NCBI GenBank assembly: GCA_016931055.1
Contig: JAFGFL010000072.1
Coordinates: 1-57,700, forward strand
Direction of reading: 5' to 3'
DNA length: 57,700 bases
From: Candidatus Omnitrophota bacterium
GTDB taxonomy: Bacteria; Omnitrophota; Gorgyraeia; Zapsychrales; Zapsychraceae
The position numbers and the translations under genes are program-made. Positions 1 to 30,719 of this stretch are shown here, piece by piece (positions within the stretch are counted from its first letter, which is position 1; each line of letters begins with the position of its first letter). The notes beneath the pieces were generated by a model that had not been told where the DNA came from, made no database searches, and saw only the letters and a list, made by a program, of their open reading frames with translations.

Positions 1-106
1 AAAATGGATCGAGCTTCAGTTTAAAATCATTCAATCAGTACAGTGTAATGGCTTTTAATTATCAACCAAATTTCCGTGTCATAACCACTTAATTAGGTAA
101 TTAAGT

Positions 107-240
107 GAGGGGTCGGGGAGTTTTTTCTCAGATTCGACCCCTCATCCTGACGAGCAAAGCGAGGAAGGATCTCATGGGATCCTTCGTCACTGCGTTCCTC
201 AGGATGAGCCCCCCCGAGTAGAAAAACTCCCCGGGGGCTC
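107..240. mobile_element. MITE copy A (TIR GAG-N4-CGGGGAGTTTTT, 8-bp TSD AATTAAGT)
   Basis: Imperfect terminal inverted repeats; AATTAAGT at 99-106 and 241-248; homologous copies at 36596 and 40969. Confidence 0.85.
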
Positions 241-260
241 AATTAAGTTTGTGTCCCGTT

Positions 261-360
261 ATTCAGCTCATTTCAAATTTTTATGATAGAAGCGACCCGT
301 TAAGGCCGCTTCTTTCGGAAGCTTTTGAAACGTCTGGGGTTATCTGGAAACGGTTTGATT
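261..360. repeat. ~100-bp structured direct repeat, copy 1
   Basis: Aligns by eye with 1697-1790 and 2568-2667; internal hairpin AGAAGCG(288-294)/CGCTTCT(307-313). Confidence 0.9.
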
Positions 361-428
361 GGTTTACTTGTTTGTTGTTGTTTCCTGTAAGCGTGGGTAA
401 TTTTGTTGGCGTAGTGTTCGCAGAAATT

Positions 429-1052
429 CTAAATCCATCCATCCCTTTCAAGACAAACCCTCATACAAGGAGGACTAACAAGGAACGTATCTGCCAGAAA
501 TCCGATTATTAATCGTTTCTTTAAATCACTACTGGTAATTCTGTGCGCTTTCATAACTTCATCAGCTTTTTGAATTGCTTTCTCAAATTCTTCTTTCAAA
601 GGAGTGGCAGGAACCAAAACAAGTCCAGCAAAATCATTGGCTTCATATTCAATAACCTTTACAGGCCAATCAGATATATCATTTACAATTATTTTCCAAT
701 CATCAATTGTTTGGATATCAAATTGTTCAAAAAAGTATTGGTGGAGTTCTCTATGTGCAATTTCGTGGGCCAACGTAAACCTATAGCGCGTGATAATTGT
801 TCTTTGTACATAATCATCAACACTAATACTGCTAAAATCTGCAGCAATAAAACCGTCGATTTCTAACTCAAAACCTTGTAGCGCTTGCTTCAATCCGGGA
901 ATGGGGATAATGTCTATTTTCAGTTGATTATCAATTATCTCTTCAATTGGAATAGGAAGCGTATAGGAAGGATGGTGAGTTTTTAAAAATAATTCAGCTT
1001 TAGTTTTTATTTCATCAAAACTAATAGGAATTGGCACAATTTCCATTATCAA
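429..1052 (-). CDS. ImmA/IrrE-family metallopeptidase
   Basis: RFTLAHEIAH (HExxH) and EYEANDFAG motifs; ATGA overlap with upstream XRE gene. Confidence 0.9.
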   Translation of the reverse strand: MIMEIVPIPISFDEIKTKAELFLKTHHPSYTLPIPIEEIIDNQLKIDIIPIPGLKQALQGFELEIDGFIAADFSSISVDDYVQRTIITRYRFTLAHEIAHRELHQYFFEQFDIQTIDDWKIIVNDISDWPVKVIEYEANDFAGLVLVPATPLKEEFEKAIQKADEVMKAHRITSSDLKKRLIIGFLADTFLVSPPCMRVCLERDGWI

Positions 1053-1411
1053 GATTCTTTGATCTTCCTGATTATTTCGTTTAATTCATCCTCGGAAAAC
1101 TTTCCGTCCCTCATTTTCCGAAATAACACAGGTAATCGGACAAGAGTATCATGGTCTTTTAAATCAGCAGGTATTTTGCCAGCACTAATGGCAGCTAAAT
1201 CTTGGAAATGTTGCCACTCTTCGCTACCAATTTCAATTTTTAAATATTCTGCATATTTACGCAACTTTTCCTCATTTGTCGGGGGGGCCATTTTGCTTCT
1301 TTCAATCTTACTGATGTTGCCCGGGTCTAAATCATGCAGCTCACAAAACTGTCTTAATGTTAACCCTATCGCAATTCTCTTTTCTTTAAAAAATTCTCCA
1401 AAGTTTTCCAT
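1049..1411 (-). CDS. XRE-family HTH transcriptional regulator
   Basis: FGEFFKEKR..LTLRQFC..ISKIERS HTH; GGAGG RBS upstream. Confidence 0.9.
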   Translation of the reverse strand: MENFGEFFKEKRIAIGLTLRQFCELHDLDPGNISKIERSKMAPPTNEEKLRKYAEYLKIEIGSEEWQHFQDLAAISAGKIPADLKDHDTLVRLPVLFRKMRDGKFSEDELNEIIRKIKES

Positions 1412-1445
1412 TAGATTTTACCTCCTTCCTTCTGTCTTTATTAAA

Positions 1446-1505
1446 TTGTATTCTTTTTACAACGCTTCTCTGATATAAGTATGACACATTGTAACAAAAT
1501 TACAA
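1446..1505. promoter_or_regulatory. Two TTGTA-N7-TACAA palindromes, candidate XRE operators
   Basis: 1446-1462 and 1489-1505, directly upstream of the xre gene. Confidence 0.6.
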
Positions 1506-1696
1506 CAGTAAAAAGCAAGCCATTAAAATTTCATCTTGACTTAACCTACTGCTATTAAATAAGTTAAGATGCTTTTTATAAGTTCAGAAATTGAAATTTC
1601 GGAAATATAACAAATAAATCCCAAAATGTCAAGTTTTTTTAATTGGATTGAAATGCTCATAATTTTGTTCATTTATTTAACACGGGTACTTTTCTG

Positions 1697-1790
1697 CATA
1701 ACTCAGCACATTTCAAATCTTTATAATAGAAGTGGACGCTTTAGCCAGAAGCTTTTGAAACGACTGGGGTTATCCAGAAACGGTTTGATT
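1697..1790. repeat. ~100-bp structured direct repeat, copy 2
   Basis: Same repeat family, with a shortened central hairpin. Confidence 0.9.
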
Positions 1791-1804
1791 ATTTTTTATT
1801 AGTT

Positions 1805-2491
1805 CTAAATTTCGAGTTGCCATGCCCGATCAAGATGGCTTCCTTTCAGTTCAATGATTCCGCTTGTGGTGACAACTATCTTGATTGTTGGGTTCCCAGC
1901 AAGCGGATTGAAAAAAACCTTAGCACTTTTTTTGTCGTCCGAAACCTCACCCACACCACCTACCATAGCGTGATGATCCACTGATCCCCCGAATGAGACA
2001 ATAGTCAAATCGCCTTCGATTACTCTTGCGTTGAATATATAGCCATCTACACGGCTATTATTGGATGGACGAAATTGCACGATTGCTTCGTAACCTAAAC
2101 TCGTTTGCTTGATTTGCTTACCTAGAGGAACAAGAATTGGAGGGCCATATAGTTTCTTTGTTTGATCCACTTCGCTCTGAAGTTCCCCAATCTGTTTGGT
2201 TTGTTCAGCATCCTTTTTCTGCAGCTCGACTACATAGTCAGCAAGTTTTTGAAGAGCTTCTTTTTCATCACCCGTGTACTTCTCGAGGGCAATTGTCCGA
2301 AAAGGCATGAGAAGTGTCTCAAGACGTTGAATCTCAGCACTCTTGTCTACAATCTCACGTTCTAACATCTTATTATCTTGTTTAAGTTGGGATCGCTGAT
2401 GCCAGATAGTAACCAGCGTCATTATAATAAGACCTATTGCAGTCACTATCGCAACTTGAACGCTTGCTTTATGATAAAATTTCTGATTCAT
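1805..2491 (-). CDS. Hypothetical protein: N-terminal TM helix, coiled coil, beta-rich C-terminal domain
   Basis: Long ORF; start chosen at ATG 2491 (MNQKFY). Confidence 0.75.
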   Translation of the reverse strand: MNQKFYHKASVQVAIVTAIGLIIMTLVTIWHQRSQLKQDNKMLEREIVDKSAEIQRLETLLMPFRTIALEKYTGDEKEALQKLADYVVELQKKDAEQTKQIGELQSEVDQTKKLYGPPILVPLGKQIKQTSLGYEAIVQFRPSNNSRVDGYIFNARVIEGDLTIVSFGGSVDHHAMVGGVGEVSDDKKSAKVFFNPLAGNPTIKIVVTTSGIIELKGSHLDRAWQLEI

Positions 2492-2567
2492 ATCACATCT
2501 TTCCACTATTCCTCTAAAGGTTAGCCAGTACCTAGCACCGGAAAACAAGCCAAAACGTTTCTATATG

Positions 2568-2667
2568 ATTCAGCACATCTCAAATCTTCATGATAGAAGT
2601 GACCCGTTAGTGACACTTCTGTCAGAACCTTTTATAACTTATGGGATTATCTAGAAACGGTTTGACT
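2568..2667. repeat. ~100-bp structured direct repeat, copy 3
   Basis: Hairpin AGAAGTG(2595-2601)/CACTTCT(2614-2620). Confidence 0.85.
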
Positions 2668-2689
2668 AGTTCTATTATTTTATTTTTTG

Positions 2690-3073
2690 CTAGGCATTTT
2701 TTATAATCTTATTTGCTACACTCACAATATCAAATCCAACATAAAAAGATAGTAAGCTAACTAATCCAAAATTTGGCGTTACTATATGATATTTATCACT
2801 GAATATAAATACTAAAATAAACACTACCGCTACCAGAAGAGGATAATAAAGGAAATAGTTCACGAAGCAGTCTCTCACAGCTATATTTTTTAATTTTTCT
2901 TCCTCTTTCCATTTTATGTATACATATGTAAAAGCTCTAAGAGATAATCCTAATGCTGAAAATCCTATATAGCCTGATATGTTTGAATCATTGCGGTATC
3001 CAGCATCGAAAAACATCAAAGATAATAAAATATAAAATATCCCTGCTATTCCTTTTACCGTTCGTTCTCTCAT
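2690..3073 (-). CDS. Hypothetical membrane protein (about 4 TM)
   Basis: Hydrophobic segments; AAGGGG RBS; very AT-rich. Confidence 0.7.
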   Translation of the reverse strand: MRERTVKGIAGIFYILLSLMFFDAGYRNDSNISGYIGFSALGLSLRAFTYVYIKWKEEEKLKNIAVRDCFVNYFLYYPLLVAVVFILVFIFSDKYHIVTPNFGLVSLLSFYVGFDIVSVANKIIKNA

Positions 3074-3228
3074 TAATAATCCCCTTTCATCACCTGATCA
3101 GATTATTAACTACTGCAACACCGGGTGTTGCCGACAGAATAAGCGGCTTTTCGTACCACTTAACTTGAAACCCCTTGCTTAATAGCAGTTTGCCGGTACC
3201 CGGTAATGTATTTTTTTCAGTGCGCCTA

Positions 3229-3471
3229 TTAATGCTTACGATCCCTTGGCGGATTCGGATCATGTCCAGGCGGAACTGTGTCGCTGTCGCGAATTGGTCC
3301 ATTTGGGCTGTGTATTCTCACTTCGCCTCCACCGCTATTTGCTGCCATTTTCTTCGCTGCTTTCTCTGCTTCAAACTGCGTATCATAGTAACCAGCAACA
3401 CGGTCGGTCTTTTCTCGCTTCGCGCGCCAATCACCTGACTCTTTATCTTTTGAAACGTGATAGTTTGCCAT
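3229..3471 (-). CDS. DUF2188-like small protein
   Basis: YHV..W..KRE...TQxEA...GEVRIH..G.IRDSDT pattern; GGAGG RBS before ATG 3471. Confidence 0.85.
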   Translation of the reverse strand: MANYHVSKDKESGDWRAKREKTDRVAGYYDTQFEAEKAAKKMAANSGGGEVRIHSPNGPIRDSDTVPPGHDPNPPRDRKH

Positions 3472-3572
3472 AGGAATCCTCCATAAATAAATAACCATAG
3501 CCCTTGAACTCCCTTAGGACTATGGTAAAGTATTTACAAGGGTTAAAATAATAGCCGTTTTTTACTGCCCTA

Positions 3573-3602
3573 GCCCAGAGTTCGCGCTCTGGGCTTTCTT
3601 TT
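3573..3602. terminator. Hairpin AGCCCAGAG/CTCTGGGCT, probable terminator
   Basis: GC stem at the end of the MTase/nuclease cluster. Confidence 0.55.
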
Positions 3603-3799
3603 CACTTTTCAACGGCCTCTTCAATCGCGGCCTTAAAAACTGTGTCAATGCCGAAAGTCAGACCTGATTCAATACATTTTTCGGCTGTGCGCATCTCATA
3701 ATCAGTTAATCTGCGCTCAAGCCTGTTTACTGCGACACCTTGCACATCCTCGGCAGTTATAGCGAAAACTATTCTATCGTCATCACGATTGAAATTCAT
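3602..3799 (-). CDS. Hypothetical 65-aa protein
   Basis: Co-oriented, 17 bp downstream of the nuclease gene. Confidence 0.65.
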   Translation of the reverse strand: MNFNRDDDRIVFAITAEDVQGVAVNRLERRLTDYEMRTAEKCIESGLTFGIDTVFKAAIEEAVEK

Positions 3800-3816
3800 A
3801 ATTGCGCTTCCATTCC

Positions 3817-4299
3817 TTATAATTTCGGTATTAATGAACCATAATCAATTGATCCTGATCTGGCGTTCCATTTACATACCTTCATCATATTGCTGTGCCC
3901 GGGGCCATACCTTAATAAATCTTCTCTCTTGTAAATCTTGAAGATCCTCTCTAATGCTCCCAGTCCCTTTGATGAAATTAAAAAGGATTCGACCGGATTT
4001 AAGAGCTGAGTGTAACCCCAGAGTTGTCCTAAATCTTTTAACGTTAAAGGAGCATCTTTCACCTCAACAAAAACCAACCTAACATTGTGCCCTCGCATAA
4101 GAATGCCAACAATATCAACCTTAATCGATAATCCAACAGCTTCCTTAATTTCGATTCCTAATTCCTTGAGACAACCATCTAAATTCTGTCTGGATGTTTT
4201 GTGTGTTGTAATAATTTTATTTGCCGGATATTTTTCCACCAAATATACCTTGAGCCATTCTTCAATATCTGGATATAATTTTTCTTCCTCTTTGCTCAT
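3817..4299 (-). CDS. PD-(D/E)xK nuclease-like protein (putative restriction subunit)
   Basis: VDIVG...VFVEVK...LGQLWGY motif order of Mrr/NucS-like nuclease folds; start ATG 4299. Confidence 0.7.
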   Translation of the reverse strand: MSKEEEKLYPDIEEWLKVYLVEKYPANKIITTHKTSRQNLDGCLKELGIEIKEAVGLSIKVDIVGILMRGHNVRLVFVEVKDAPLTLKDLGQLWGYTQLLNPVESFLISSKGLGALERIFKIYKREDLLRYGPGHSNMMKVCKWNARSGSIDYGSLIPKL

Positions 4300-4301
4300 A
4301 T

Positions 4302-5261
4302 TTATCGTGGTTTGTAGCCTAAGATTTCGGCTATTTCGGTCCAATGATTAAAATGTTTACCTCTGATTTCGGCAGGCAATAATTCACTTTTTTCCATTGG
4401 ATGTGCCGGCCTGGATTTTCTTACCAGCTTCTTAACTTCCCAATAAAATTTCTTATGTTGTTGTTCGATCGTTCCTATTTGGGAAAGGAATTTTTCTTTA
4501 GTTTTTTCGTTCTTGGCATGTGATGCTTTTTTTCTCCGATCCTTATCCCATTCACTACGATTTATATCAGCCAGTTTCTTTAAGATTTCCATCTTGTGAA
4601 TGATTCTGAATCCAATTTTCTCATAAAGATCGGCAAAGATTTTTATTTGATGTTCTTTGTTCCAAAAATTTTTATTTCCTTCTTTATATTTTTTGAGGTT
4701 ACCATCCCTCATATTCGGATGACCCCAATCAATATTTTGAACTGGAATATCCAAATCAGCCAATAAGTTGCAAATGTCAACAGCTAGAAACCAATTAACC
4801 GGTATTTCGACAAAAACTCTATGTGCGTAAGAGTAGCCATAGGCTTCGCCCCCATGACCAATATGAGCAGTGACATCGGATAATCCAATTAGGAACTCTT
4901 TTTTCATATCTGTAGATGCCAAATAAATATCTTTGGGGATCCTAAATTCTTTCCACGTGTTTTTATTTTTAAAATGTCGATTAATTTCTCTTATTAAGAA
5001 ATCCTCGTTGGGTTTAGAAAATTTGATGATTGTCTTTGTTCGCTCTTGAATAGTTCTGACGGAAACACTGATCAACGGCTCGATATTGTTTCTGAAGTCA
5101 TCTAGGCTTGCCTTTACAGAGAGCTGTGCGTCTTTGCCTTCTACAATTAAATTTTTATGAGGAATCTCGATTAAGATATCGGTTGTTGATTCCCCTCTCT
5201 TAATTATACCCTTTCCTGCAATCATTCCTAAAAGGTAAGCTAGTTCTGGGTTATCCACCAT
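4302..5261 (-). CDS. LAGLIDADG-like double-motif protein with degenerate catalytic residues
   Basis: ELAYLLGMIAGKG and KEFLIGLSDVTA, about 115 aa apart. Confidence 0.6.
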   Translation of the reverse strand: MVDNPELAYLLGMIAGKGIIKRGESTTDILIEIPHKNLIVEGKDAQLSVKASLDDFRNNIEPLISVSVRTIQERTKTIIKFSKPNEDFLIREINRHFKNKNTWKEFRIPKDIYLASTDMKKEFLIGLSDVTAHIGHGGEAYGYSYAHRVFVEIPVNWFLAVDICNLLADLDIPVQNIDWGHPNMRDGNLKKYKEGNKNFWNKEHQIKIFADLYEKIGFRIIHKMEILKKLADINRSEWDKDRRKKASHAKNEKTKEKFLSQIGTIEQQHKKFYWEVKKLVRKSRPAHPMEKSELLPAEIRGKHFNHWTEIAEILGYKPR

Positions 5262-5265
5262 ATAA

Positions 5266-6066
5266 TTATTTGCGTTTCCTAAAAATTAAAACATATTCAT
5301 GTACTTTATTTACCCTGAAAACCGAAGGCCAGCCCAATGGTTTCATATTATTATATTCGTGTTGTCTGTCCCAAATGATAATATCTTCAAAAATGAATCC
5401 AACGCCTTTCATTTTCTCAGCTAAATCAGAATGAAGCGGATAAAATCTGTCCTTTTTCCTAATATCCATAACCACAACCACACAATGACCGCCGATTTTT
5501 AAAACATCGTATACGGCTGAAAAGACTTGAATTAATTCAGATAAAAATTGTTCATAATTATCGATATTGCCTAAATTGGTTTTATCTTTACCATAATTCT
5601 TGATTCTCTTTCCATCAGCCGTTCTTCGCATATTGAGAATATCCCAATAGGGTGGAGATGTAAGACAAAGATCAATTGTTTGATCTTTTACGTATTCTTT
5701 TAAGAATCGAGCATCTGCATTGATAATTTCTATTTCTTTATCACTCAAAGCTCCATTCAGCCCTTTCAAACGCAGGTTTGCTAACTTTACAAATTCCTTT
5801 GATAAATCTATACCAATTGCCCGTCGATCTTGATTGTACGCGGCTATAATGGTACTGCCTATGCCCATAAACGGGTCTAACACAATATCATTTTTGCAGG
5901 TATAAGTTTTGATAATTTTCTCAGCAAGTGCCGAAGGGAACATGGCTGGGTGTTTAAAACTTCTTTCATCATCTGTCTTGCGGATATCCCGCCAAATGCT
6001 GAAGGAATGTTGAAGCCACTCCTTACCTGTTAAATCGTTATACCTAGTAGGGGGTTTTGTCACCAT
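5266..6066 (-). CDS. Amino DNA methyltransferase, probably N4-cytosine
   Basis: HPAMFP, DPFMGIGS (motif I) preceding TSPPY (motif IV). Confidence 0.9.
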   Translation of the reverse strand: MVTKPPTRYNDLTGKEWLQHSFSIWRDIRKTDDERSFKHPAMFPSALAEKIIKTYTCKNDIVLDPFMGIGSTIIAAYNQDRRAIGIDLSKEFVKLANLRLKGLNGALSDKEIEIINADARFLKEYVKDQTIDLCLTSPPYWDILNMRRTADGKRIKNYGKDKTNLGNIDNYEQFLSELIQVFSAVYDVLKIGGHCVVVVMDIRKKDRFYPLHSDLAEKMKGVGFIFEDIIIWDRQHEYNNMKPLGWPSVFRVNKVHEYVLIFRKRK

Positions 6067-7796
6067 AAGCTCCTTGGGGACAGCATTTTATTCACAGCAT
6101 CTTCAATCAATTTGATCTCTTGGTTGCTTAGATCATAAATGTCATATACAATTTTATCAATCTCTTTATTGTTCTCCTTCTGCGTTTCCTTATCATTAAT
6201 TTCATCAAGCGAATCAATAATCCGTATTAACCGGTTAAGGGATGCCTGATTCGGATTGGGAATAACCGGAATTGAGCCAATGTAAGATTTATCAAGATGC
6301 ATCGTCAATTTTGATCTATTAAACAGCGCATACATAATATAGAAATTGATTAATTTTGAATTTAGTAAAGCGAGGAAATATTTCCCTTCATCATCGTCCT
6401 TAACGACAATGTTTGTAACAGTATCAAGATTGAGCAGCTTGTGGGGGTCATAAGCAGCTATTACTCCAGCTTCCGACGAGAAAATGTTCTGTAAAACAAC
6501 CTTCTTTTGCTTGAGTTCATTTGTCTTTACTTTACTTTGTTTTTCCAATAACTCCTTCTTCATAAATGGAAGGTTCTTCAACCTGAATTTTGCAATATCT
6601 CTACCGCGAATTATTTTTTCGTATCCGATATCATTTTCCTGTTCTGCGCGATTCCCCCCTATAGGTAATCCTCTAAATATTTTATCATCCACAAGATTTT
6701 TTAATTCTATTCCAGCGTCAGACAGATTGGCGATTAAATTATAATGCTCCTGTAATTCGTATGTATAAAATCTCGGCATGTGAATAAGTTTCTTGTGGGA
6801 AAGAGTCATGCACGGCTGTTGTACCATTGTCTTATTTTTATCAGCAAATACGCAGATTCTTACATAGCTGTTGGCAATGCTTAGTTTCTTTCTGACAAAT
6901 AAAATAAATTGTTCCCCCCGAACATCTTTAAATTTTGATCCCAAATCATAAATCTGTAAAATATCTGTATTGTGGCTTAAATAGCTGCGTAGTTTCTGGT
7001 AAGAATCGACATAAAGAATAGACTTAGGTAATAAAAAGGCAAGCACACCTTGCTTCTTTAGTAGCTCCAGTGAACGTCCGATCATAAGAGTAGCGGCATT
7101 GACCGGGCCTTCTACAATTTGTCGATATATTGATTCTGAAGAATCAAAGTCTTTCAAATTTCTCAAGGTCACATAGGGGGGATTCCCGATTATAAAATCA
7201 AACCCGCCTCTTTGCATGACATCGGGATATTCATTCTTCCAACTGAACGCATTTTTATTTAATGCCGGATTTGAAACTATGCTGTTTCCTGATTTTATAT
7301 TTTGTTTAATAAAAGGAATGTATCTTCTATCGAAATCTGCTTTCATGTATATACATAGCCGAGTCATATTTGCGGCATCTTCATTAATATCGACCCCATA
7401 AATATTCCTCACAAATTCAGAAGAGTATCTCTCTTTGAATTTATCAAAAAGAGTTAAAAGGAATGAACCGCAGCCACAGGAAGGATCTAATATTTTTGAA
7501 TCTTCTTGGATATCGAGTTGAGAAATAATGTACTCGACTATGGTTTTAGGGGTATAGTATTGCCCCATGTCTTTACGCTCAAATTTTTCTAGAGAATGCT
7601 CAAAATGATCTATCATCGACTCATAAGAATAGCCCTTTCTTAAAGAATCAATAAAAAAGTTTTTTATATATCGATTACGAACATCAATTAAACTATCCGC
7701 TTCAACCAGGACTGAATTCAATGTTCCAACCTCTTCTTCAATTGATTGATTGACTCGATTGACATCCCCAATGGTTGTTGTTGATTCTAAACTCAT
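6060..7796 (-). CDS. N6-adenine DNA methyltransferase, gamma class, with TaqI-like C-terminal TRD
   Basis: GQYYTP, DPSCGCGSF, GNPPY, ALLNSKL motifs. Confidence 0.9.
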   Translation of the reverse strand: MSLESTTTIGDVNRVNQSIEEEVGTLNSVLVEADSLIDVRNRYIKNFFIDSLRKGYSYESMIDHFEHSLEKFERKDMGQYYTPKTIVEYIISQLDIQEDSKILDPSCGCGSFLLTLFDKFKERYSSEFVRNIYGVDINEDAANMTRLCIYMKADFDRRYIPFIKQNIKSGNSIVSNPALNKNAFSWKNEYPDVMQRGGFDFIIGNPPYVTLRNLKDFDSSESIYRQIVEGPVNAATLMIGRSLELLKKQGVLAFLLPKSILYVDSYQKLRSYLSHNTDILQIYDLGSKFKDVRGEQFILFVRKKLSIANSYVRICVFADKNKTMVQQPCMTLSHKKLIHMPRFYTYELQEHYNLIANLSDAGIELKNLVDDKIFRGLPIGGNRAEQENDIGYEKIIRGRDIAKFRLKNLPFMKKELLEKQSKVKTNELKQKKVVLQNIFSSEAGVIAAYDPHKLLNLDTVTNIVVKDDDEGKYFLALLNSKLINFYIMYALFNRSKLTMHLDKSYIGSIPVIPNPNQASLNRLIRIIDSLDEINDKETQKENNKEIDKIVYDIYDLSNQEIKLIEDAVNKMLSPRSLW

Positions 7797-7868
7797 GGCT
7801 TTCTCCTCTTCTTGCCAATGTGCAGAGGGGAAATTTCTTTAAGGGGATGCTACACATTGAAATTGTTA

Positions 7869-8492
7869 TTAAAATTCTGGAATCGTTGTTACCACCACAC
7901 CCTGAATCTGAAAATCTTTTGTCAGCACAATGGGCTGATGCGTTTTATTGGTTGATCTCGGTCTTAAAACATACGTCTCTTTGCCTATACGGAATTCCTT
8001 AATAGTTGCCTCATTATCAATTAATGCTACCACTATATCTTCATTTTGGGCTGTTGTCTGCTGACGAACAAGAACTAAATCACCATCGTTAATTCCTTTT
8101 TGATCCATCGAATCGCCTTTGGCCTTGAGTAAGAAATAACGATATGGCGGTTTGGCTAATTTGGTACTAACGGGGATATTGGCCTGTACATTTTCTTCAG
8201 CAAGCATTGGCACTCCGCAGGAAACCATCCCAACCAAAGGAACGTCTACAGTCTGGGCACGGGTGGTATCATCGCCTAAGCTCTTAACAAACTGAAGACC
8301 GCCATCTTTTTTGCGGCGCAGAACGCCTTTTCTGATTAATTTATCAACAATTAATGACGCTGAGCGTGGAGATTGGTAGCCAAGGGATGACATCAACTCG
8401 CGCATGGAAGGAATGCGACCAACGTGCATCAGGGAATTCCGGATTTCGCGGATGGCTTCTAATTCTTTATTGGTTACTACAGCTGCTTGCAT
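7869..8492 (-). CDS. lexA: LexA-family repressor
   Basis: wHTH (PSMREL..LGYQS), VPLVGMVSCGVP cleavage region, GDSM serine and ATIK lysine; start ATG 8492. Confidence 0.88.
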   Translation of the reverse strand: MQAAVVTNKELEAIREIRNSLMHVGRIPSMRELMSSLGYQSPRSASLIVDKLIRKGVLRRKKDGGLQFVKSLGDDTTRAQTVDVPLVGMVSCGVPMLAEENVQANIPVSTKLAKPPYRYFLLKAKGDSMDQKGINDGDLVLVRQQTTAQNEDIVVALIDNEATIKEFRIGKETYVLRPRSTNKTHQPIVLTKDFQIQGVVVTTIPEF

Positions 8493-21892: not shown

Positions 21893-22624
21893 CTAACCGC
21901 CAAAAGCGAAAGTGAAGCCCGTGGACACTTTGTAATCCGGTTCGGCTTCTGAAATCCCTGAAGCCAAGCCCAGATCATACGTTACAGCATCGTTGATCGC
22001 ATAATTAAGACCGACCAGGCCTGATGTCGCGTTGTCATCGAACTTCCCGGATAATAGCGTATCTCCGAAGATTTCCCCGACAAGATTTATTTTCTCGTTT
22101 AAAGAATATTCCAGCGCGAAGCAGTAATTAAACGTATCTTCAAACTCTTTTTTAACCGAACAACCTAAATTCCCATAATACGTGATCTTATTAAATTGTT
22201 TTGAAAAGATGCCGGTGAACGTATATTCCGGCCTTCCCGTTCCCAGGGATTTCTCGTCATTTCCCGATTCGGTTTTGTATGCAAAAGACAGGGCAAAATC
22301 CGGCAAACGCTCTTGTTCATGAAGGATATTCCATTTTGACATGATCACAATATCAGAAAATCCATTTGTATCACCCTCATCTTCTAAATCAATAAATTGA
22401 TACGGAATCTCAACGCCAAGGTCAAGGTTCTTCAATACACCCGTCTTAAGAACAACGCTGTGATTATATTCCTTATCTGTGGCGTTGACATATTCATAAC
22501 CATATTCTAATTCTAAGGCACCAACATCAGCCGCTCCCGCATCGTCTGTCGCAAGAGGACGGGCCGCATAGGCATTTGAAACAAAAACAAGGCTCATGAT
22601 AAAAAGAGAAATATATTTTTTCAT
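21893..22624 (-). CDS. Outer-membrane beta-barrel transporter (ARPL.TDDA family)
   Basis: Signal peptide AYA-ARPLATDDAG; amphipathic strands; aromatic C-terminus. Confidence 0.75.
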   Translation of the reverse strand: MKKYISLFIMSLVFVSNAYAARPLATDDAGAADVGALELEYGYEYVNATDKEYNHSVVLKTGVLKNLDLGVEIPYQFIDLEDEGDTNGFSDIVIMSKWNILHEQERLPDFALSFAYKTESGNDEKSLGTGRPEYTFTGIFSKQFNKITYYGNLGCSVKKEFEDTFNYCFALEYSLNEKINLVGEIFGDTLLSGKFDDNATSGLVGLNYAINDAVTYDLGLASGISEAEPDYKVSTGFTFAFGG

Positions 22625-22649
22625 AATTCACTCCAAAGTTGAAATAATT

Positions 22650-23555
22650 TTAGGCTGAAATTTTAATTTTCGACTGCTCCAGGCTTTTACCTATGACCCA
22701 TGTCAGACCATAAACCAGGGCGATCCCCGCCCAACCGGCAAAAATCGTGGCAGCCGCGGCATTTGTAATAAATCCGGCTTGATAATCAGGAAACATGGCC
22801 GATATTTCAAAACCGCCGAATTCTAAGAAAGACAGTTTTTGCGCGACCCATTCCAATCCATCAGGAAAGCCGCTTGCAAAAGGACTTAATGTTACCGCCA
22901 CACCAGCCAACATAAAAGAGCCTAAGGCGAACTGCGGTTCTTTTTCCTGCCATAAAGCCGCATAAAAGCTCAAGACAGAAACCACGGCAACTGTCAATAA
23001 AGATTCACCGAGGCCAATAAGCGCGTGAACAGAAAGCATCGCCGGTAAAACCTTGTTAAACGTAACGGCCCCTGAAATGCCTACTTCTAAAGAACAGGCA
23101 AAGGCGCCGATCAATACTGAAAAGAAAGCCGCGATGCCCAAAGAAACGTGTTTATTTATTTTTTTGGCCTTGAGCGCAGAATAAACAACGCCTCCTAATC
23201 CCGCCCCCAAAAGCGACATATTAAGGATGTTGGCGCCCAACGCATTGATGCCTCCGTCCCCAAAGAACACGGCCTGGACGGCAAGAACAACAGCCGTCGA
23301 CAAAATGGCAAAAGGTATGCCCAATAGACTTACTCCTAAGAGAGCGCCTACAAGATGCCCGGATGTTCCGTTTTGAACAGGATAATTCAGCATCTGAAGA
23401 GCGAACATAAGCGCTGTTACCGCAGCAAATTTTGCGGCAGACGGCTTATTTTCATTCTTTTTGGCAACTGTTGCAGCAACTCCTAATCCCAAGACCGAAA
23501 CTGCTGCGGTGACCGGACATATCGCCCCGTTTAACATGGATGTTGGAATGTGCAT
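22650..23555 (-). CDS. nikM: ECF nickel/cobalt substrate component NikMN/CbiM with PDGLE domain
   Basis: MHIP N-terminus, GTSGHLVG, DGG, PDGLE. Confidence 0.88.
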   Translation of the reverse strand: MHIPTSMLNGAICPVTAAVSVLGLGVAATVAKKNENKPSAAKFAAVTALMFALQMLNYPVQNGTSGHLVGALLGVSLLGIPFAILSTAVVLAVQAVFFGDGGINALGANILNMSLLGAGLGGVVYSALKAKKINKHVSLGIAAFFSVLIGAFACSLEVGISGAVTFNKVLPAMLSVHALIGLGESLLTVAVVSVLSFYAALWQEKEPQFALGSFMLAGVAVTLSPFASGFPDGLEWVAQKLSFLEFGGFEISAMFPDYQAGFITNAAAATIFAGWAGIALVYGLTWVIGKSLEQSKIKISA

Positions 23556-23575
23556 GTTTCCCTCCCTCGTTTTTT

Positions 23576-23602
23576 GTATTACGATTTTAATTTTCGTGCT
23601 AC
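23576..23602. promoter_or_regulatory. NikR operator upstream of nikM
   Basis: GTATTAC-N13-GTGCTAC. Confidence 0.7.
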
Positions 23603-23626
23603 CAACTGACAAAAAAATAATACGGC

Positions 23627-24043
23627 TCAGCTTAAATTCTTGCCTGTGGCGGACATGCTTAATGTCCCGTGTTTAACACCCTTGACGGCTTTCAACAAAT
23701 CAGCCAATTTCAAGACCTCTTGAGGAGATCCTTTGACCGCAATGATCTCTAAACAGTTATCATGATCCAAATGGACGTGTTGAGAGGAAATGATCACCTT
23801 CTGGAAATCATGCTGGATATCCGTGATTGTGTTCATCAGCTCTCTTTTGTGGTGATTATAAATCAGAGTGACGGCGCCGGCAATTTCACTCCCTTCCTGC
23901 CACGCCTGTTCAACCAGATCATGCCGGATCAAATCACGGATGGCTTCCGAACGGTTGGTATATCCTTCGCGCTGGATCCTCTTATCAAACTTTTTAGAAA
24001 GCTCTTTTTCTAATGAAATGCCAAATCTGATCAAGTCAGTCAT
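23627..24043 (-). CDS. nikR: Nickel-responsive regulator NikR
   Basis: RFGISL, NRSEAIRDLIR, HVHLDHDNCLE. Confidence 0.96.
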   Translation of the reverse strand: MTDLIRFGISLEKELSKKFDKRIQREGYTNRSEAIRDLIRHDLVEQAWQEGSEIAGAVTLIYNHHKRELMNTITDIQHDFQKVIISSQHVHLDHDNCLEIIAVKGSPQEVLKLADLLKAVKGVKHGTLSMSATGKNLS

Positions 24044-24907: not shown

Positions 24908-27900
24908 CTATTTTGTCTTCTTTGCCTCTTCCCGTTCCTGGATGATCTTCTCCTGGATCGCGCGGGGGACCGGCGCGTAAAAGGCCGGTTCCATAGAAAA
25001 GGACGCGCGCCCCTGGGAGAGCGACCTGAGGGCGTTGGCGTAATTGAACATCTCGGAAAGCGGGACCTCGCATTTGACCGTTTTCAACTTTCCCTGAACG
25101 CCCATATCAACAATCTTGGCCCTGCGGGAATTCAGGTCACCCACGACCGCCCCGTTATATTCCTCCGGCACGGCGCAATCGACGACCATGATAGGCTCCA
25201 AGAAGATGCATTTGCCCTGCCTCAGCGCCTCGAGCAGCGCCCTTTTGGCCGCTGTCTGGAAAGCGATGTCGCTTGAGTCCACCTCGTGGAACGAACCGTC
25301 AATCAGGGTCACCGTAAAATCCGTGACCGGATATTGCGCCAAGACCCCTTTTTGCGACTGGGCCGCGATGCCCTTCTTTATAGAAGGGATATATTCCTGC
25401 GGGATCGCACCGCCTTTGATCTTGTCAATGAATTCAATCCCTTTGCCCGGTTTCTCGGCAGGTTCGACATTGATCACACAGTGCCCATACTGGCCGCGGC
25501 CTCCGGTCTGCGAAATGAACTTGCCTTCGATCTTCTCGACCTTCTGTGTCACCGTCTCCCGGTAGGCCACCTGCGGCCGGCCGATATCGATGTTCAGGTC
25601 ATGCTCGCGTTTCATCCGGTCGACCACGATATCCAAATGCAGCTCGCCCATCCCCGAGAGGATGGTTTGGCCCGTCTCCTCATCGTAACGGCTGGTTAAG
25701 GACGGGTCCTCATCCAGGAACCTGTGCAGGATCTCCCCCATCTTGTTCTGGTCGCCTTTTGACTTGGGCGAAATGGCCATCGAAACCACCGGCTCCGGGA
25801 TGTTCATGCTTTCCAAAACGATCTGCCGCTCGGCGTCGCTGATCGTATCGCCGGATTTTGTTTCCTTAAGGCCGACCAAGGCAATAATGCTTCCGGCAGA
25901 GGCCTTGTTAACAATCTCCTGCTTATTGGAATGCATGACCACAATTTTCGCGATCCGTTCCTTTTTGCCGCGCGTCGTGTTGTAGACGGTTTCGCCGGAA
26001 TCGATCCTGCCCGAATAGATCCTTGTATAGAACAATTTGCCGACGTAAGGGTCAGAGGCGACTTTAAAGACCAGCGCGCTTAAAGACTCCGCGTAAGACG
26101 TTTTGCGCTCCACTTCCGCTCCGTCTTCGGACATAGGGTCCTTGCCCTTGACCGGCGGGACGTCCAAAGGCGACGGCAAATAATCGATAACGGCGTCAAG
26201 CACCAGTTGCACCCCGCGGTTGTGCAGGGCCGTCCCGACCAAGACCGGGAAGAAAGAATTCTTGCAGACGCCTCGGCGTATCGCCGCCTGGACCTGCTCG
26301 ACCGTGATCTCCTTCTTGCCCGCCACATGCTCCATAATTTCTTCATCAACCTCCGACAGCCGCTCAAGAAGGACATGCCTCAGCTGCTCGCACTTTTCTC
26401 TTAAAGGTTCGGGGATATCCTGACGCTGTAATTTCAGGCCGTCCTCATCCAGGTAGGTGATATATTGCCTTTGAATCACATCGACAATCCCTTTAAATTC
26501 ATTTTCCGTCCCGTCAGCAAACTGGATCGCGGCCGCGTTGGCCCCCAGCCGGTCATGGATCTGCCCAATCACGCGCTCGGCATCGGCGCCCAGCCGGTCG
26601 ATCTTGTTGATAAAGAAGATCCGCGGCACATGATAACGGTCGGCCTGCCGCCAGACCGTTTCGGTCTGGGCCTGCACCCCGCTTGTGGCGCACAAGACAA
26701 CGACCGCCCCGTCCAGGACCTTCAGGGAACGTTCGACCTCAACGGTAAAATCAACGTGGCCGGGCGTGTCGATAATATTGATCCTTTTCCTGTTCCAAAA
26801 ACACGTTATGCTCGCCGCCGTGATGGTGATCCCGCGTTCCTGCTCCTGGGGCATCCAGTCCATGACGGCGTTGCCTTGGTCGACCGTCCCCATTTTATGG
26901 ATGACCCCCGTATAATAGAGGATGCGTTCCGTGGTCGTGGTCTTTCCGGCGTCAATATGCGCGATGATGCCGATATTCCTCGTGTCTTTTAATTTTTCCT
27001 CTTCTTCGGCGTCGGTTTCTTCGGGTGTCTGAGCTTTCGGCTGTTCTGCGGCAGCTTCCGTGGCGGGTGATGCTGGTGGGACTACGGATCCTTCTGATGC
27101 CGGAAGCGCCGATCCGCTGGAAGGTGTCTCTGTTACGGCGCTTTCCTCTTTCTTCGTTTCCCCCGCCGGTTTGGCTTGCGCCTCAAGAGGCCCTGGTTCC
27201 TTTAACTCTTCGGCTTTCGCCTCGGTTATGAGTTGAGAGATTTTCTGGATTTCCTCCGGGGACAATGTCCCGCCTTCCTTCAGTTTCTGCGCCAAAACGG
27301 CTATCTGTTTATCTTTTTCCTTGATCAGGGCCTCTCTCTGGTTTAATTGCCCTAATAAAGTCTCAGCCCTCTTCTTTTCATCCTGAAATTCCTTGCGGGC
27401 CTTTTCAAGCTCATTTTCCTTCTCAAGGACTTCTTTTTGGCGCCGGTTGATTTTCTGTTCCAATTGATCGGCCCGCCGCTTCCATGATTCCACTTCTCTC
27501 GTTGCATCATCACTTTTTTTCTCGATCTCATAGTGCTTGTCTTTGGCGTCCTTGACCTCTTTCTCAAGCGCATTCTTGACCTGATTAAACTCTTTGCGTT
27601 TTTTTGTTTCTTCCTTTAAAACTTGCCGGTGCTTTTCCAACTCGGCTTGGTTTTCATCAAAATGTTTTTGAAGTTCCGCATATTTTTCCTGCAGCTCGCT
27701 CAACTGGAGAGACAGATGAATTTCTTCCTCAAGATCTTTATGTTCGGCGGGGGTAAGAGGTTTGAAAGGAGATTCATCGGGTATTTCAACAAGGGCGTTT
27801 AACTCTTCATGTTTCGGCTTTTCTTTCGTCTCTTCCCTTGGCGCTTGCGCAGGGCCTTCTTCCTTTATAACCGTTGTCAAAATGTCCACCAGGGGTTTCC

Positions 27901-28000
27901 TGCTTCTTGAGTTCTGCTGTTGTTCATCCCGGAACACAAGGAATAACGCGGCCCCCATGCCGAGGAAACATATCACCGTTACAAAAAGCAATGCCCCCAT
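24908..28000 (-). CDS. fusA: Elongation factor G fused to an N-terminal TM helix and coiled coil (about 335 aa)
   Basis: Full EF-G ([50 protein letters not shown]) in the last ~695 aa of a 1030-aa ORF. Confidence 0.92.
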
Positions 28001-28046
28001 AAAAATGTTCCTTTTTTAAAAAAGGTGACAGCCACTTTCTTATATA

Positions 28047-28138
28047 GTCATTCTGACACCGAACGAAGTTCGGTGGAAGAATCTCGACAGTTTAGATCCT
28101 TCCACCCAATTGTTTAACACTAGAGGCGTCAGGATGAC
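28047..28138. repeat. GTCATTCTG...CAGGATGAC stem-loop repeat
   Basis: Contains GAAGAATCT/AGATCCTTC; same family as 141-208. Confidence 0.75.
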
Positions 28139-28178
28139 ACGATAAAAAAAAGTGACCGCCACCTTATAAGAGTCTTCT

Positions 28179-28562
28179 TTACAATCCTAACTGTTTTTTC
28201 GCGATTTCGTTACTGAAGGCATACAGCAATTTCGCATAGATCGTTCTGGCCCGGTCAGACATGTGCTCGATCGTAACGACCGTCTCAAAAAATATCGAAC
28301 GGGCTTTACAAGCCGTGCAACGCAGAACCTTGCAATCATATAATAATTTCTCGTTTTCCAGAGGGGTGGAGATAAGCAATTGCATCTCGGTCTCCTCAGG
28401 AAATTTCTCAGTGGTAAGAAAACAGATGCCGGACTCGCTCATATTGATGGGGGTCACCGCATCCCAGGTTTCCTTGCTTCCAGGGGCATTGCTGCGGAAT
28501 TTCATCGTGTACGGCAACTTCACGCGCTGGTGACGCCTTTTTTCCATACCATCCATTTCCAT
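28179..28562 (-). CDS. PilZ-domain protein
   Basis: EKRRHQR (RxxxR) and NMSESG (D/NxSxxG). Confidence 0.85.
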   Translation of the reverse strand: MEMDGMEKRRHQRVKLPYTMKFRSNAPGSKETWDAVTPINMSESGICFLTTEKFPEETEMQLLISTPLENEKLLYDCKVLRCTACKARSIFFETVVTIEHMSDRARTIYAKLLYAFSNEIAKKQLGL

Positions 28563-28739
28563 CGCAACCCCTTTCCCTGTTACGTTAAGTATATCACACG
28601 AAGGAACATGAAAAAACAATTGAACGCAAAAAAAGAATAGCCGCTTTTTCACCTGTCATCTTTCCCTTTGCCCAGGATGACGGTGATAAGCGGCTATTGT
28701 TTTTTATCCTGTTACCTCGTTCCCTTTTAAGCGATGCCC

Positions 28740-29184: not shown

Positions 29185-29195
29185 GACAGAAACCG

Positions 29196-29267
29196 CGTCC
29201 CCGGCTGGAATCGAACCAGCATCTATGGCTCCGGAGGCCAGCACTCTATCCGTTGAGCTACGGGGAC
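29196..29267 (-). tRNA. tRNA-Arg(CCG)
   Basis: GTCCCCG acceptor stem, TAGCTCAACGGATAGAG D arm, CCG anticodon, GTTCGATTC T loop; CCA not encoded. Confidence 0.95.
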
Positions 29268-30458: not shown

Positions 30459-30719
30459 TTATGGGGTGACTTTAAAAACCTTATCGCCTTCATGCACCTT
30501 TTGAGCGACTTTGATCCCTGCCGCCTCGCCGGCCCCGGCTTCCTCGACATTTTCGTGTTCAAGCTGGATCGATTCCACCGGTTGGGTAAAATCATCATGA
30601 GCGCCTTTAATATGGATCGTGTCTCCGACCTTAAGCTGAGCCGAAAGATTTATTATCCCGACGCTCAAATGGTTGTAATAATGGGAAATTTTTCCGATTT
30701 GTTGTTCAGCCATTTCCAT
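30459..30719 (-). CDS. Small beta-barrel protein (translation-factor domain II / U32 C-terminal-like)
   Basis: IGKISHYY..L.VGDTIHIKG...KVHEGDKV. Confidence 0.75.
   Translation of the reverse strand: MEMAEQQIGKISHYYNHLSVGIINLSAQLKVGDTIHIKGAHDDFTQPVESIQLEHENVEEAGAGEAAGIKVAQKVHEGDKVFKVTP

Follow-up and report, generated by a model that had tools for sequence, protein, structure and literature searches.

The window analysed here is a stretch of 57,700 nucleotides (positions 1 to 57,700 of contig JAFGFL010000072.1, assembly GCA_016931055.1) from a Candidatus Omnitrophota bacterium. Its longest open reading frame (ORF) encodes a 1030-residue protein in which a hydrophobic helix, a long coiled coil and an acidic linker precede a complete translation elongation factor G (EF-G). 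The gene is a real, selectively maintained extra EF-G and not an artefact, and its product is likely to be an active, membrane-tethered EF-G, probably dimeric, that works on ribosomes in the vicinity of the membrane. Few proteins are as conserved or as well studied as EF-G, which is treated as a freely diffusing cytoplasmic factor. No membrane-anchored or transmembrane (TM) EF-G is described in the abstracts and main-text passages searched, those of Omnitrophota genome papers included, and the words "membrane" and "transmembrane" do not occur in the accessible part of a survey of translational GTPases (PMC4342817). The novelty lies in the added anchor and not in divergence of the factor.

An earlier reading of the DNA, the original prediction, had described an uninterrupted 1030-residue ORF comprising a hydrophobic N-terminal helix, a coiled coil at about residues 88-245, a Pro/Ala/Glu linker and an intact EF-G with GTPase motifs and domain IV loops, and had proposed an extra EF-G held on a membrane stalk, perhaps to translocate, recycle or rescue membrane-bound ribosomes. 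Each of these parts was recovered, whereas the suggested roles stay predictions. The frame starts with ATG and contains no stops, and the predicted coiled coil lies essentially where it had been placed. The proposed architecture also survived the three findings that might have undone it, namely a misassembly, an internal start giving only free EF-G, and relatives in which the parts are always separate genes. The window is contig C16 of a 2.2-Mb metagenome-assembled genome (G000) of 94 contigs that is 89% complete.

The EF-G part of the fused protein

All five EF-G domains, G (with G'), II, III, IV and V, are present. The Pfam matches, all above cutoff, are GTP_EFTU (residues 338-610), EF-G_D2/GTP_EFTU_D2 for domain II (640-722), EFG_III (734-807), EFG_IV (809-929) and EFG_C (933-1018). 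The TIGR00484 equivalog model is matched over positions 6-690 of 691 with 959.3 bits against a cutoff of 659.4, and the alignment with residues 9-689 of Thermus thermophilus EF-G (1dar_A; 780.9 bits) is end-to-end and poor in gaps. By every sequence criterion applied, the fused copy is an EF-G. It departs from the usual form of the factor, a soluble protein of about 700 residues encoded in the str operon, a form that is typical and not strictly defining.

The domain IV loops QTGGRGQYG and HEVDSS are present in the window protein, and the P-loop, the switch I Thr, DTPGH, NKxD and both domain IV loops were found in all ten fused sequences examined. The corresponding counts for canonical EF-Gs are 14/14 and 19/19, with domain IV loop 2 in 17/19 of the out-group. 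The fused clade differs from 33 canonical sequences at six positions only (F462, L781, C942, V968, E1024 and K1028), none of which falls within the GTPase or domain IV motifs checked, and the EF-G part of the window protein is 65% identical to the canonical EF-G of its own genome. Because the motifs are kept and the clade-specific positions are only six, the EF-G part appears to be working and neither degenerate nor retargeted. It retains every motif for ribosome-stimulated GTP hydrolysis and translocation, and activity is predicted.

Other identities were tried and rejected: EF-G2 (NF009377; 510.1 bits, cutoff 890), Bacteroidetes EF-G2 (NF058620; 480.5 bits, cutoff 1000) and tetracycline ribosomal protection protein (NF012153; 392.8 bits, cutoff 775).

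Anchor, stalk and linker

The N-terminal module was modelled with AlphaFold2 (AF2) from a 40-row family alignment, with a mean predicted local distance difference test score (pLDDT) of 77.4. Kyte-Doolittle windows of 19 residues exceed 1.6 only where they begin at residues 1-7, peaking at 2.68, and this is the sole hydrophobic segment. AF2 places a helix at residues 2-33 (pLDDT 85-96), and the N-terminal TM helix is kept in all fused orthologues. Among 113 Met-started members of the module's family (see below), the number of Lys and Arg residues averages 0.035 ahead of the helix and 2.1 over the 15 residues that follow; in the window protein the positive residues after the helix are R24, R32, R34 and K35. 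Because Lys and Arg are almost entirely missing ahead of the helix, the positive-inside rule favours an N-out/C-in anchor over a cleavable signal peptide, and the EF-G is predicted to be cytoplasmic.

Periplasm-spanning proteins such as TolA and TonB also have a TM segment followed by a long region that is helical or rich in Pro. In the reverse orientation the helix would be a signal anchor with its N-terminus inside, and the EF-G would moonlight at the cell surface, for instance in contact with host or prey; this would suit the proposal of Seymour et al. 2023 (PMC10066038) that Omnitrophota are predators or parasites. Such an orientation is nevertheless highly improbable. No positive n-region precedes the helix, the Lys and Arg averages given above run the other way, and the conserved GTPase and ribosome-contact motifs and low ratios of nonsynonymous to synonymous substitution (dN/dS) would fit only a compartment in which GTP and ribosomes are present.

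The spacer after the anchor is modelled as disordered from about residue 47 to 83 (pLDDT 46-55 over residues 40-80) and varies in length among orthologues. It is followed by a single unbroken helix at residues 84-241 (pLDDT 96-98). One heptad register spans all 158 residues of this helix; Leu, Ile, Val, Met or Phe occupy 23 of the 45 a and d positions against a fraction of 0.08 elsewhere, a pattern matched by none of 2000 shuffles. The unbroken register over so long a helix therefore points to a true coiled coil about 23 nm long. Within it, K133, R135, K136, E137, F138 and N139 are invariant across five aligned fused proteins.

A two-copy model of residues 85-250 scored 0.52, against 0.00 for the best of three controls. 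Its runs share at least 96% of contacts, with a partner pLDDT of at least 84. Of proteins solved as pairs, 20 of 30 attain the mark for this score, as does 1 of 23 solved as single chains; the homodimer was the one oligomer modelled. Contacts in the model join residue i to residue i, so that the dimer would be parallel and in register, and the modelling supports a stalk of this kind. Such an arrangement suits a stalk that has a pair of anchors at one end and a pair of EF-G heads at the opposite end.

The linker is modelled as a short helix at residues 248-265 and then as disordered from about 266 to 335. Residues 246-335 consist of 22% Glu, 17% Ala, 12% Pro and 10% Ser, with a net charge of -14, in agreement with the original description, and the linker varies in length across orthologues. 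With a stalk of about 23 nm and a flexible linker, the EF-G heads would operate roughly 25-35 nm from the membrane. Omnitrophota cells are mostly about 0.2 µm in size, according to PMC10066038. A sphere of 0.2 µm has 58-74% of its cytoplasm no farther than 24-35 nm from the membrane, a geometric estimate in which the cell size of this lineage is assumed from that of the phylum.

Translation start and junction

The public gene call for the window ORF (P0002) gives 1016 residues from Met15, a start that would cut the hydrophobic helix in half. Met1 is the better-supported start, because an AGGAA lies 7 nt upstream of its ATG, residues 1-14 are conserved in orthologues and the TM segment has a low dN/dS (Table 1). 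Inspection of the sequence found nothing like AGGAA upstream of the Met15 ATG, and position 15 is Thr in the same-genus orthologue (genome G004, protein P0003).

The codons at the junction with the EF-G read GAA AAA TTA AAA GAC ACG AGG. The original prediction had noted that no start codon lies at this boundary and that the Leu is TTA; this is correct, and there is no in-frame ATG, GTG or TTG among the 40 codons preceding the R-N-I-G of the EF-G in the window gene. The ancestral EF-G start, still ATG in G004, reads ACC in the window. In a further case the public record gives only the EF-G: NCBI MCK5014068.1 (P0154, in the cluster of P0003) is a fused orthologue deposited as a 702-residue "elongation factor G" from an internal Met. 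Database starts at Met15 or at an internal Met thus hide or truncate the membrane anchor, a practical warning that model-guided annotation of start sites can trim such N-terminal extensions.

Distribution and assembly support

A census was made of 151 genomes of one Candidatus Omnitrophota order (TIGR00484 at E ≤ 1e-250); the genome samples are evenly drawn subsets, and many genomes are incomplete. Two EF-G1-type matches were found in 13 of the 151, and the same 13 hold one of the two within an open frame of 1003-1125 residues. The carriers belong to eight genus codes in two families, f1 (7 of 45 genomes, that of the window included) and f12 (6 of 29). The fusion was not found in f14 (0/46), f13 (0/8), f9 (0/8), f5 (0/5) or six other families with one or two genomes each, nor in 45 genomes of other orders and classes of the phylum, where all EF-G frames are 687-748 residues long. 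No fused copy was found in G001-G003, genomes of the window's genus that are 74-78% complete, which does not by itself show absence.

All 13 long frames begin with the hydrophobic helix at residue 1; spacer, coiled coil and acidic linker then take up 310-410 residues, and the EF-G is joined at the same point, ...L-(K/A/N)-(D/N/E)-x-R-N-I-G. Two further fused members occur among metagenome proteins, P0004 and P0005, the latter a fragment at a contig end. A Logan contig from a sediment metagenome spans positions 26840-28300 of the window, including the junction at 26996, with no differences; it is weak independent support, because contig and genome may share a sample of origin.

A chimeric assembly, two genes joined by a frameshift or an ORF that runs through from upstream into an ordinary EF-G gene could be suspected in a metagenome-assembled genome of 94 contigs that is 89% complete, the more so since the public starts disagree (1016 residues for the window, 702 for the orthologue). 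Such an artefact is effectively refuted. The same fusion with the same junction recurs in 13 genomes and two metagenome proteins, every segment of the extension is under coding-type selection, the TM helix and core motif are conserved, and a contig bridges the junction without differences. A shared erroneous reference is excluded because identities among the assemblies are 60-86%.

All 13 fusion genomes also contain a canonical EF-G. No sampled genome holds an unfused extra copy of EF-G1 type, the extra copies being fused in 13 of 13 cases. The challenge that relatives might always encode the parts separately is thus answered, although the N-terminal module is also found as a separate gene family. 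The canonical fusA of the window genome, which the original prediction had advised seeking in the str operon, was found in an intact rpoC-rpsL-rpsG-fusA-tuf cluster on contig C90. The genome has three EF-G-family genes (canonical fusA, the fused gene and an EF-G2-like gene), so that the "second EF-G" of the original prediction holds for the EF-G1 type and needs amending to the third for the family as a whole.

The EF-G2-like gene (C47:46586-48517) has a frame of 677 residues, and most genomes of the order have a gene like it. Its G' region appears diverged or shortened, because TIGR00484 matches it in two pieces (3-164 and 207-690).

No public RNA sequencing run is listed as holding the fused gene. 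Two metatranscriptome runs of one study gave only pieces of 31-47 nt with loose ends, lying in the most conserved EF-G stretches, which speak neither for nor against expression.

Origin and selection

A maximum likelihood tree was calculated for 50 EF-G domains. Fourteen of these are fused and 17 are canonical copies of the order; 19 canonical domains from the rest of the phylum served as outgroup. All 14 fused domains form one clade (UFBoot 99, SH-aLRT 92), which is present in 100% of 200 bootstrap trees. A quick tree of 43 rows places this clade within the order's canonical clade (SH-aLRT 100) and beside the canonical copies of f12 (97); the branch lengths of the fused domains in it resemble those of canonical copies. 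Inside the fused clade the f12 and f1 sequences separate. A single fused clade nested among the canonical EF-Gs of the order argues for one fusA duplication within the order, and the trees indicate that it was followed by vertical descent with losses or some transfer.

Selection was estimated from pairwise Nei-Gojobori dN/dS for pairs with unsaturated dS. By this measure all segments of the protein are under purifying selection (Table 1).

The N-terminal modules were analysed in a separate quick-search tree of 14 fused and 61 standalone modules over 303 columns. The f1 fused modules form one clade (SH-aLRT 94) and those of f12 are split in two; the tree has poor resolution and carries long-branch and composition warnings.

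Table 1. Features of the fused gene and its surroundings (window coordinates; residue numbers are those of the 1030-residue protein).
Feature	Residues	Coordinates	Strand	dN/dS	Basis
Whole coding sequence, 1030 residues and stop	1-1030	24908..28000	-		ORF listing, translation
Shine-Dalgarno-like AGGAA, 7 nt before the ATG at 28000		28008..28012	-		sequence; favours Met1 over Met15
N-terminal TM anchor, predicted N-out/C-in	2-23	27932..27997	-	0.05-0.18	hydropathy, AF2, conservation, dN/dS
Variable, mostly disordered spacer	24-83	27752..27931	-	0.09-0.25	AF2, alignment, dN/dS
Continuous 158-residue coiled-coil stalk (predicted), ~23 nm	84-241	27278..27751	-	0.08-0.11	AF2, heptads, dimer model, dN/dS
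K-K-R-K-E-F-N, most conserved motif of the module	133-139	27584..27604	-		alignments, regular expression
Acidic Pro/Ala/Glu-rich linker, predicted flexible	242-335	26996..27277	-	0.29-0.42	composition, AF2, alignment, dN/dS
Complete EF-G	336-1030	24911..26995	-	0.03-0.09	Pfam, TIGR00484, 1dar_A alignment, motifs, dN/dS
EF-G G domain		26171-26989	-		Pfam
EF-G domain II		25835-26083	-		Pfam
EF-G domain III		25580-25801	-		Pfam
EF-G domain IV		25214-25576	-		Pfam
EF-G domain V		24947-25204	-		Pfam
PilZ-domain gene, directly upstream, co-directional		28179..28652	-		Pfam PilZ, 38.8 bits
tRNA-Arg(CCG)		29195..29267	-		
Nickel/cobalt uptake cluster, directly downstream: NikR repressor, CbiM with PDGLE domain, MetA-pathway-type outer-membrane protein		21893..24043	-		

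A standalone family with the same N-terminal module

A profile of residues 1-335 matches 223 clusters at E ≤ 0.001, 187 of them at E ≤ 1e-10, in a library of 1.84 billion proteins clustered at 50% identity. Among the best 150 of the 223, 148 are proteins of 140-696 residues without an EF-G-sized extension; the fused f12-type proteins lie outside these 150, so that the listing gives no count of fused clusters. The same profile matches 33 of 401 Omnitrophota genomes, all of this order (12 of 15 from f1 and 13 of 13 from f12 included), with no match in the other Omnitrophota orders sampled. An N-terminal hydrophobic helix is present in 113 of 129 Met-started representatives, and the expression K-x-R-K-E/D-F-N matches 99 of 149 representatives. 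In the 40-row family alignment E131, K136, E146 and K147 are invariant, and F138 and N139 are conserved in at least 90% of rows. The family tails contain 16% Pro, 15% Glu and 9% Lys, and none has another hydrophobic segment. None of the ten standalone members tested has a Pfam family above cutoff.

The window protein shares with this family the single N-terminal TM helix without charged residues before it (residues 2-23) and the conserved coiled-coil core. Family tails end without a globular domain and that of the window protein (residues 242-335) runs into EF-G; it is therefore read as a fused derivative of the standalone family and not as a typical member. A paralogue of 458 residues in the same genome (contig C1; L043 1248..2624, minus strand) shares the TM helix, the core (...EVKNRKDFNKVKDLLEKE...) and the acidic Pro-rich tail. 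From these comparisons the N-terminal 335 residues belong to an unnamed standalone family restricted to one order.

Attempts to name the module gave sub-threshold coiled-coil matches in Pfam for the whole protein and ten standalone members (CALCOCO1, 16.6 against 36; ATG16, 21.5 against 33.7), three weak coiled-coil matches in a PDB profile search (E 0.0014-0.006) and unnamed ESM Atlas clusters at 0.87-0.89, under the lead level of 0.9. None of them led to a known family.

The existence of the standalone family bears on a different reading of the fusion, according to which the EF-G part would be mainly a GTP-gated handle for binding ribosomes, so that the protein would hold or organise ribosomes at the membrane in a cortical translation zone, or store or partition them in very small cells, perhaps together with the standalone proteins. 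The role of the module itself is likely structural, because the standalone family lacks a catalytic domain; fused and standalone proteins have the coiled-coil core in common and could assemble together; each stalk bears two heads in the dimer model; and in cells of about 0.2 µm, the size reported in PMC10066038, a reach of some 25-35 nm would cover about 58-74% of a spherical cytoplasm. A docking handle would not, however, need the catalytic and domain IV tip residues, all of which are intact, and dN/dS and branch lengths show the EF-G part changing no faster than canonical EF-G. EF-G moreover binds ribosomes only transiently in its normal GTPase cycle. The handle is for these reasons considered unlikely.

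Genomic context

The original prediction was right that rpsL, rpsG and tuf are not adjacent to the fused gene. Its neighbours are a PilZ gene, a gene for a 130-residue protein, NikR, CbiM, Sir2 and a tRNA-Arg gene. The 130-residue protein has an N-terminal hydrophobic stretch and no Pfam family over cutoff. An ORF of 155 residues similar to the PilZ gene lies upstream of the fused gene in the same-genus genome G004 (L008), and the PilZ neighbour is not kept beyond this genus; G005 and G009 have other neighbours.

The fused gene of f12 (G377, G231 and G281; L044 379..5770, L045 and L046) lies between an fmt-like ORF and a galT-like gene. The former, of about 310 residues, was read by eye as a putative methionyl-tRNA formyltransferase (fmt), and in G377 it ends 57 nt ahead of the start of the fused gene. 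For the latter, similar to galactose-1-phosphate uridylyltransferase, Pfam matches were obtained for L044 only.

A consensus scan gave 5 promoter-like sites, where 2.6 were expected by chance, and 3 terminator-like ones, where the expectation was 6.2. No site was placed to define the transcription unit, and the scan was not used.

Two observations concern other parts of the window. An ORF of 86 residues (30459..30719, minus strand) has a sub-threshold match to EF-Tu domain 2 (PF03144; 26.7 bits, cutoff 30.3) and could be a small standalone β-barrel protein. Positions 1..8000 have a GC content of 35-39% and may be foreign or otherwise compositionally distinct; most of the remaining window is at 43-56%, with some later 1-kb bins at 42-43%.

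Comparison with known systems

The fused protein has the same five domains and the same GTPase and domain IV motifs as canonical EF-G (fusA, TIGR00484, 1dar), to which it adds a 335-residue N-terminus of TM helix, coiled coil and linker. Unlike canonical EF-G, its gene lies outside the str operon and is accessory, being present in 13 of 151 genomes of the order. Specialised EF-G paralogues, such as EF-G2 (NF009377), the pairs of Spirochaetes, Planctomycetes and deltaproteobacteria, and mitochondrial EF-G1 and EF-G2, are likewise encoded by an extra gene beside the canonical one, and among them translocation and recycling are divided between copies. The fused copy differs from these in being a recent in-lineage duplicate of EF-G1 and not of EF-G2 type.

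RNase Y and EzrA have a single N-terminal TM helix followed by a cytoplasmic coiled coil. The fused protein shares this layout and topology as predicted: a very short outside N-terminus, one TM segment and a cytoplasmic coiled coil bearing the functional part. The comparison with RNase Y drawn in the original prediction holds as an analogy of layout but does not extend to sequence. No Pfam family of RNase Y, of its KH and HD domains or of EzrA was found at E ≤ 0.01 in the window protein or in ten standalone members, and the cargo of the fused protein is a translation GTPase and not a nuclease or division regulator. The standalone Omnitrophota proteins have the same helix, core motif and tail composition, the tail of the fused form leading into EF-G.

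The A domain of the SRP receptor FtsY is acidic, and certain bacteria have an FtsY with a membrane anchor at its N-terminus. Both FtsY and the fused protein would be translation-associated GTPases with an N-terminal anchor followed by an acidic disordered region, but FtsY is an SRP-type GTPase with a targeting function and without a long coiled coil, whereas the fused protein is a translational GTPase. Engineered chimeras of L9 and EF-G, in which a polypeptide is also attached at the EF-G N-terminus, are listed in the PDB (six entries by molecule name, among them 4wpo and 4wqf). In these the attachment is artificial and to a ribosomal protein; here it is natural and, as predicted, to the membrane. 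The chimeras, 4wpo and others, were presumably made for crystallography and their structures determined with the ribosome; in that case EF-G can carry an N-terminal attachment and still bind ribosomes.

Proposed function

The proposed explanation is that canonical fusA was duplicated in an ancestor within one Candidatus Omnitrophota order, and that one of the copies became fused in frame, from its original start onwards, to a lineage-specific single-pass membrane protein. The helix would insert N-out/C-in in the cytoplasmic membrane, the coiled coil would form a parallel dimer about 23 nm long, and the acidic linker would let the two EF-G heads move freely in the cytoplasm some 25-35 nm from the membrane. 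The tethered EF-G would translocate, and possibly recycle, ribosomes near the membrane, and the canonical soluble EF-G would serve bulk translation. Candidate purposes for the tether are a local supply for co-translationally inserting ribosomes, the positioning of ribosomes together with the standalone family, and a releasable store.

Several observations weigh against this explanation. The distribution is patchy (13/151 genomes), and the protein must therefore be dispensable for most of the order. The module tree does not recover the 14 fused modules as one clade, although a single clade is not rejected either: constraining them to be one costs 32.1 lnL units with an AU p of 0.108. The gene neighbourhood is not conserved between genera and therefore gives no clue to function. 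The predicted topology follows from the positive-inside rule and from the need of EF-G for cytoplasmic GTP and ribosomes, and the dimer model may have passed through the general likeness of coiled coils to solved structures. Internal starts also count here. Start-type codons lie within 40 codons of the EF-G domain in 7 of the 13 fused genes, at differing positions, and an SD-like motif accompanies the internal start in two of the seven; the window gene has an in-frame TTG at Leu246 with GGAAGG just upstream; and G004 and G005 retain an ATG at the ancestral EF-G start. A minor soluble EF-G product is therefore possible, though not as a conserved feature.

The internal starts could be taken further, to a membrane form that is chiefly a precursor or store, from which free EF-G would be produced by proteolysis of the linker or by internal initiation, with stress as one possible occasion. 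The linker, which is long, acidic and disordered, would be accessible to proteases, and the ATG of G004 and G005, the 702-residue annotation from that Met and the TTG of the window fit internal initiation. We regard a reserve of this kind as improbable. Start-type codons are absent from this region in 6 of the 13 fused genes, the window's included, and unconserved in position in the rest, so the challenge that an internal start might yield only free EF-G does not hold across the 13; no cleavage motif was identified; a canonical soluble EF-G is already present; and the clear purifying selection seen in the TM helix and the coiled coil speaks for a function of the protein in its tethered state.

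A membrane-tethered EF-G that acts on ribosomes thus remains the preferred reading. More speculatively, and with considerable doubt, the fused protein and the standalone family might form a cortical membrane scaffold that organises translation in these nano-sized bacteria, the tethered dimeric EF-G defining a membrane-proximal zone of elongation or recycling. If so, the fusion would be a "Rosetta stone" that places the standalone family in the machinery of translation or ribosome positioning. The fusion also gives a first functional handle on a sizeable, unannotated and lineage-specific family of membrane coiled-coil proteins of Omnitrophota. If the tethered factor acts as proposed, some bacteria control where in the cell elongation or recycling factors are available, which would bear on how bacteria organise the translation of membrane and secreted proteins.

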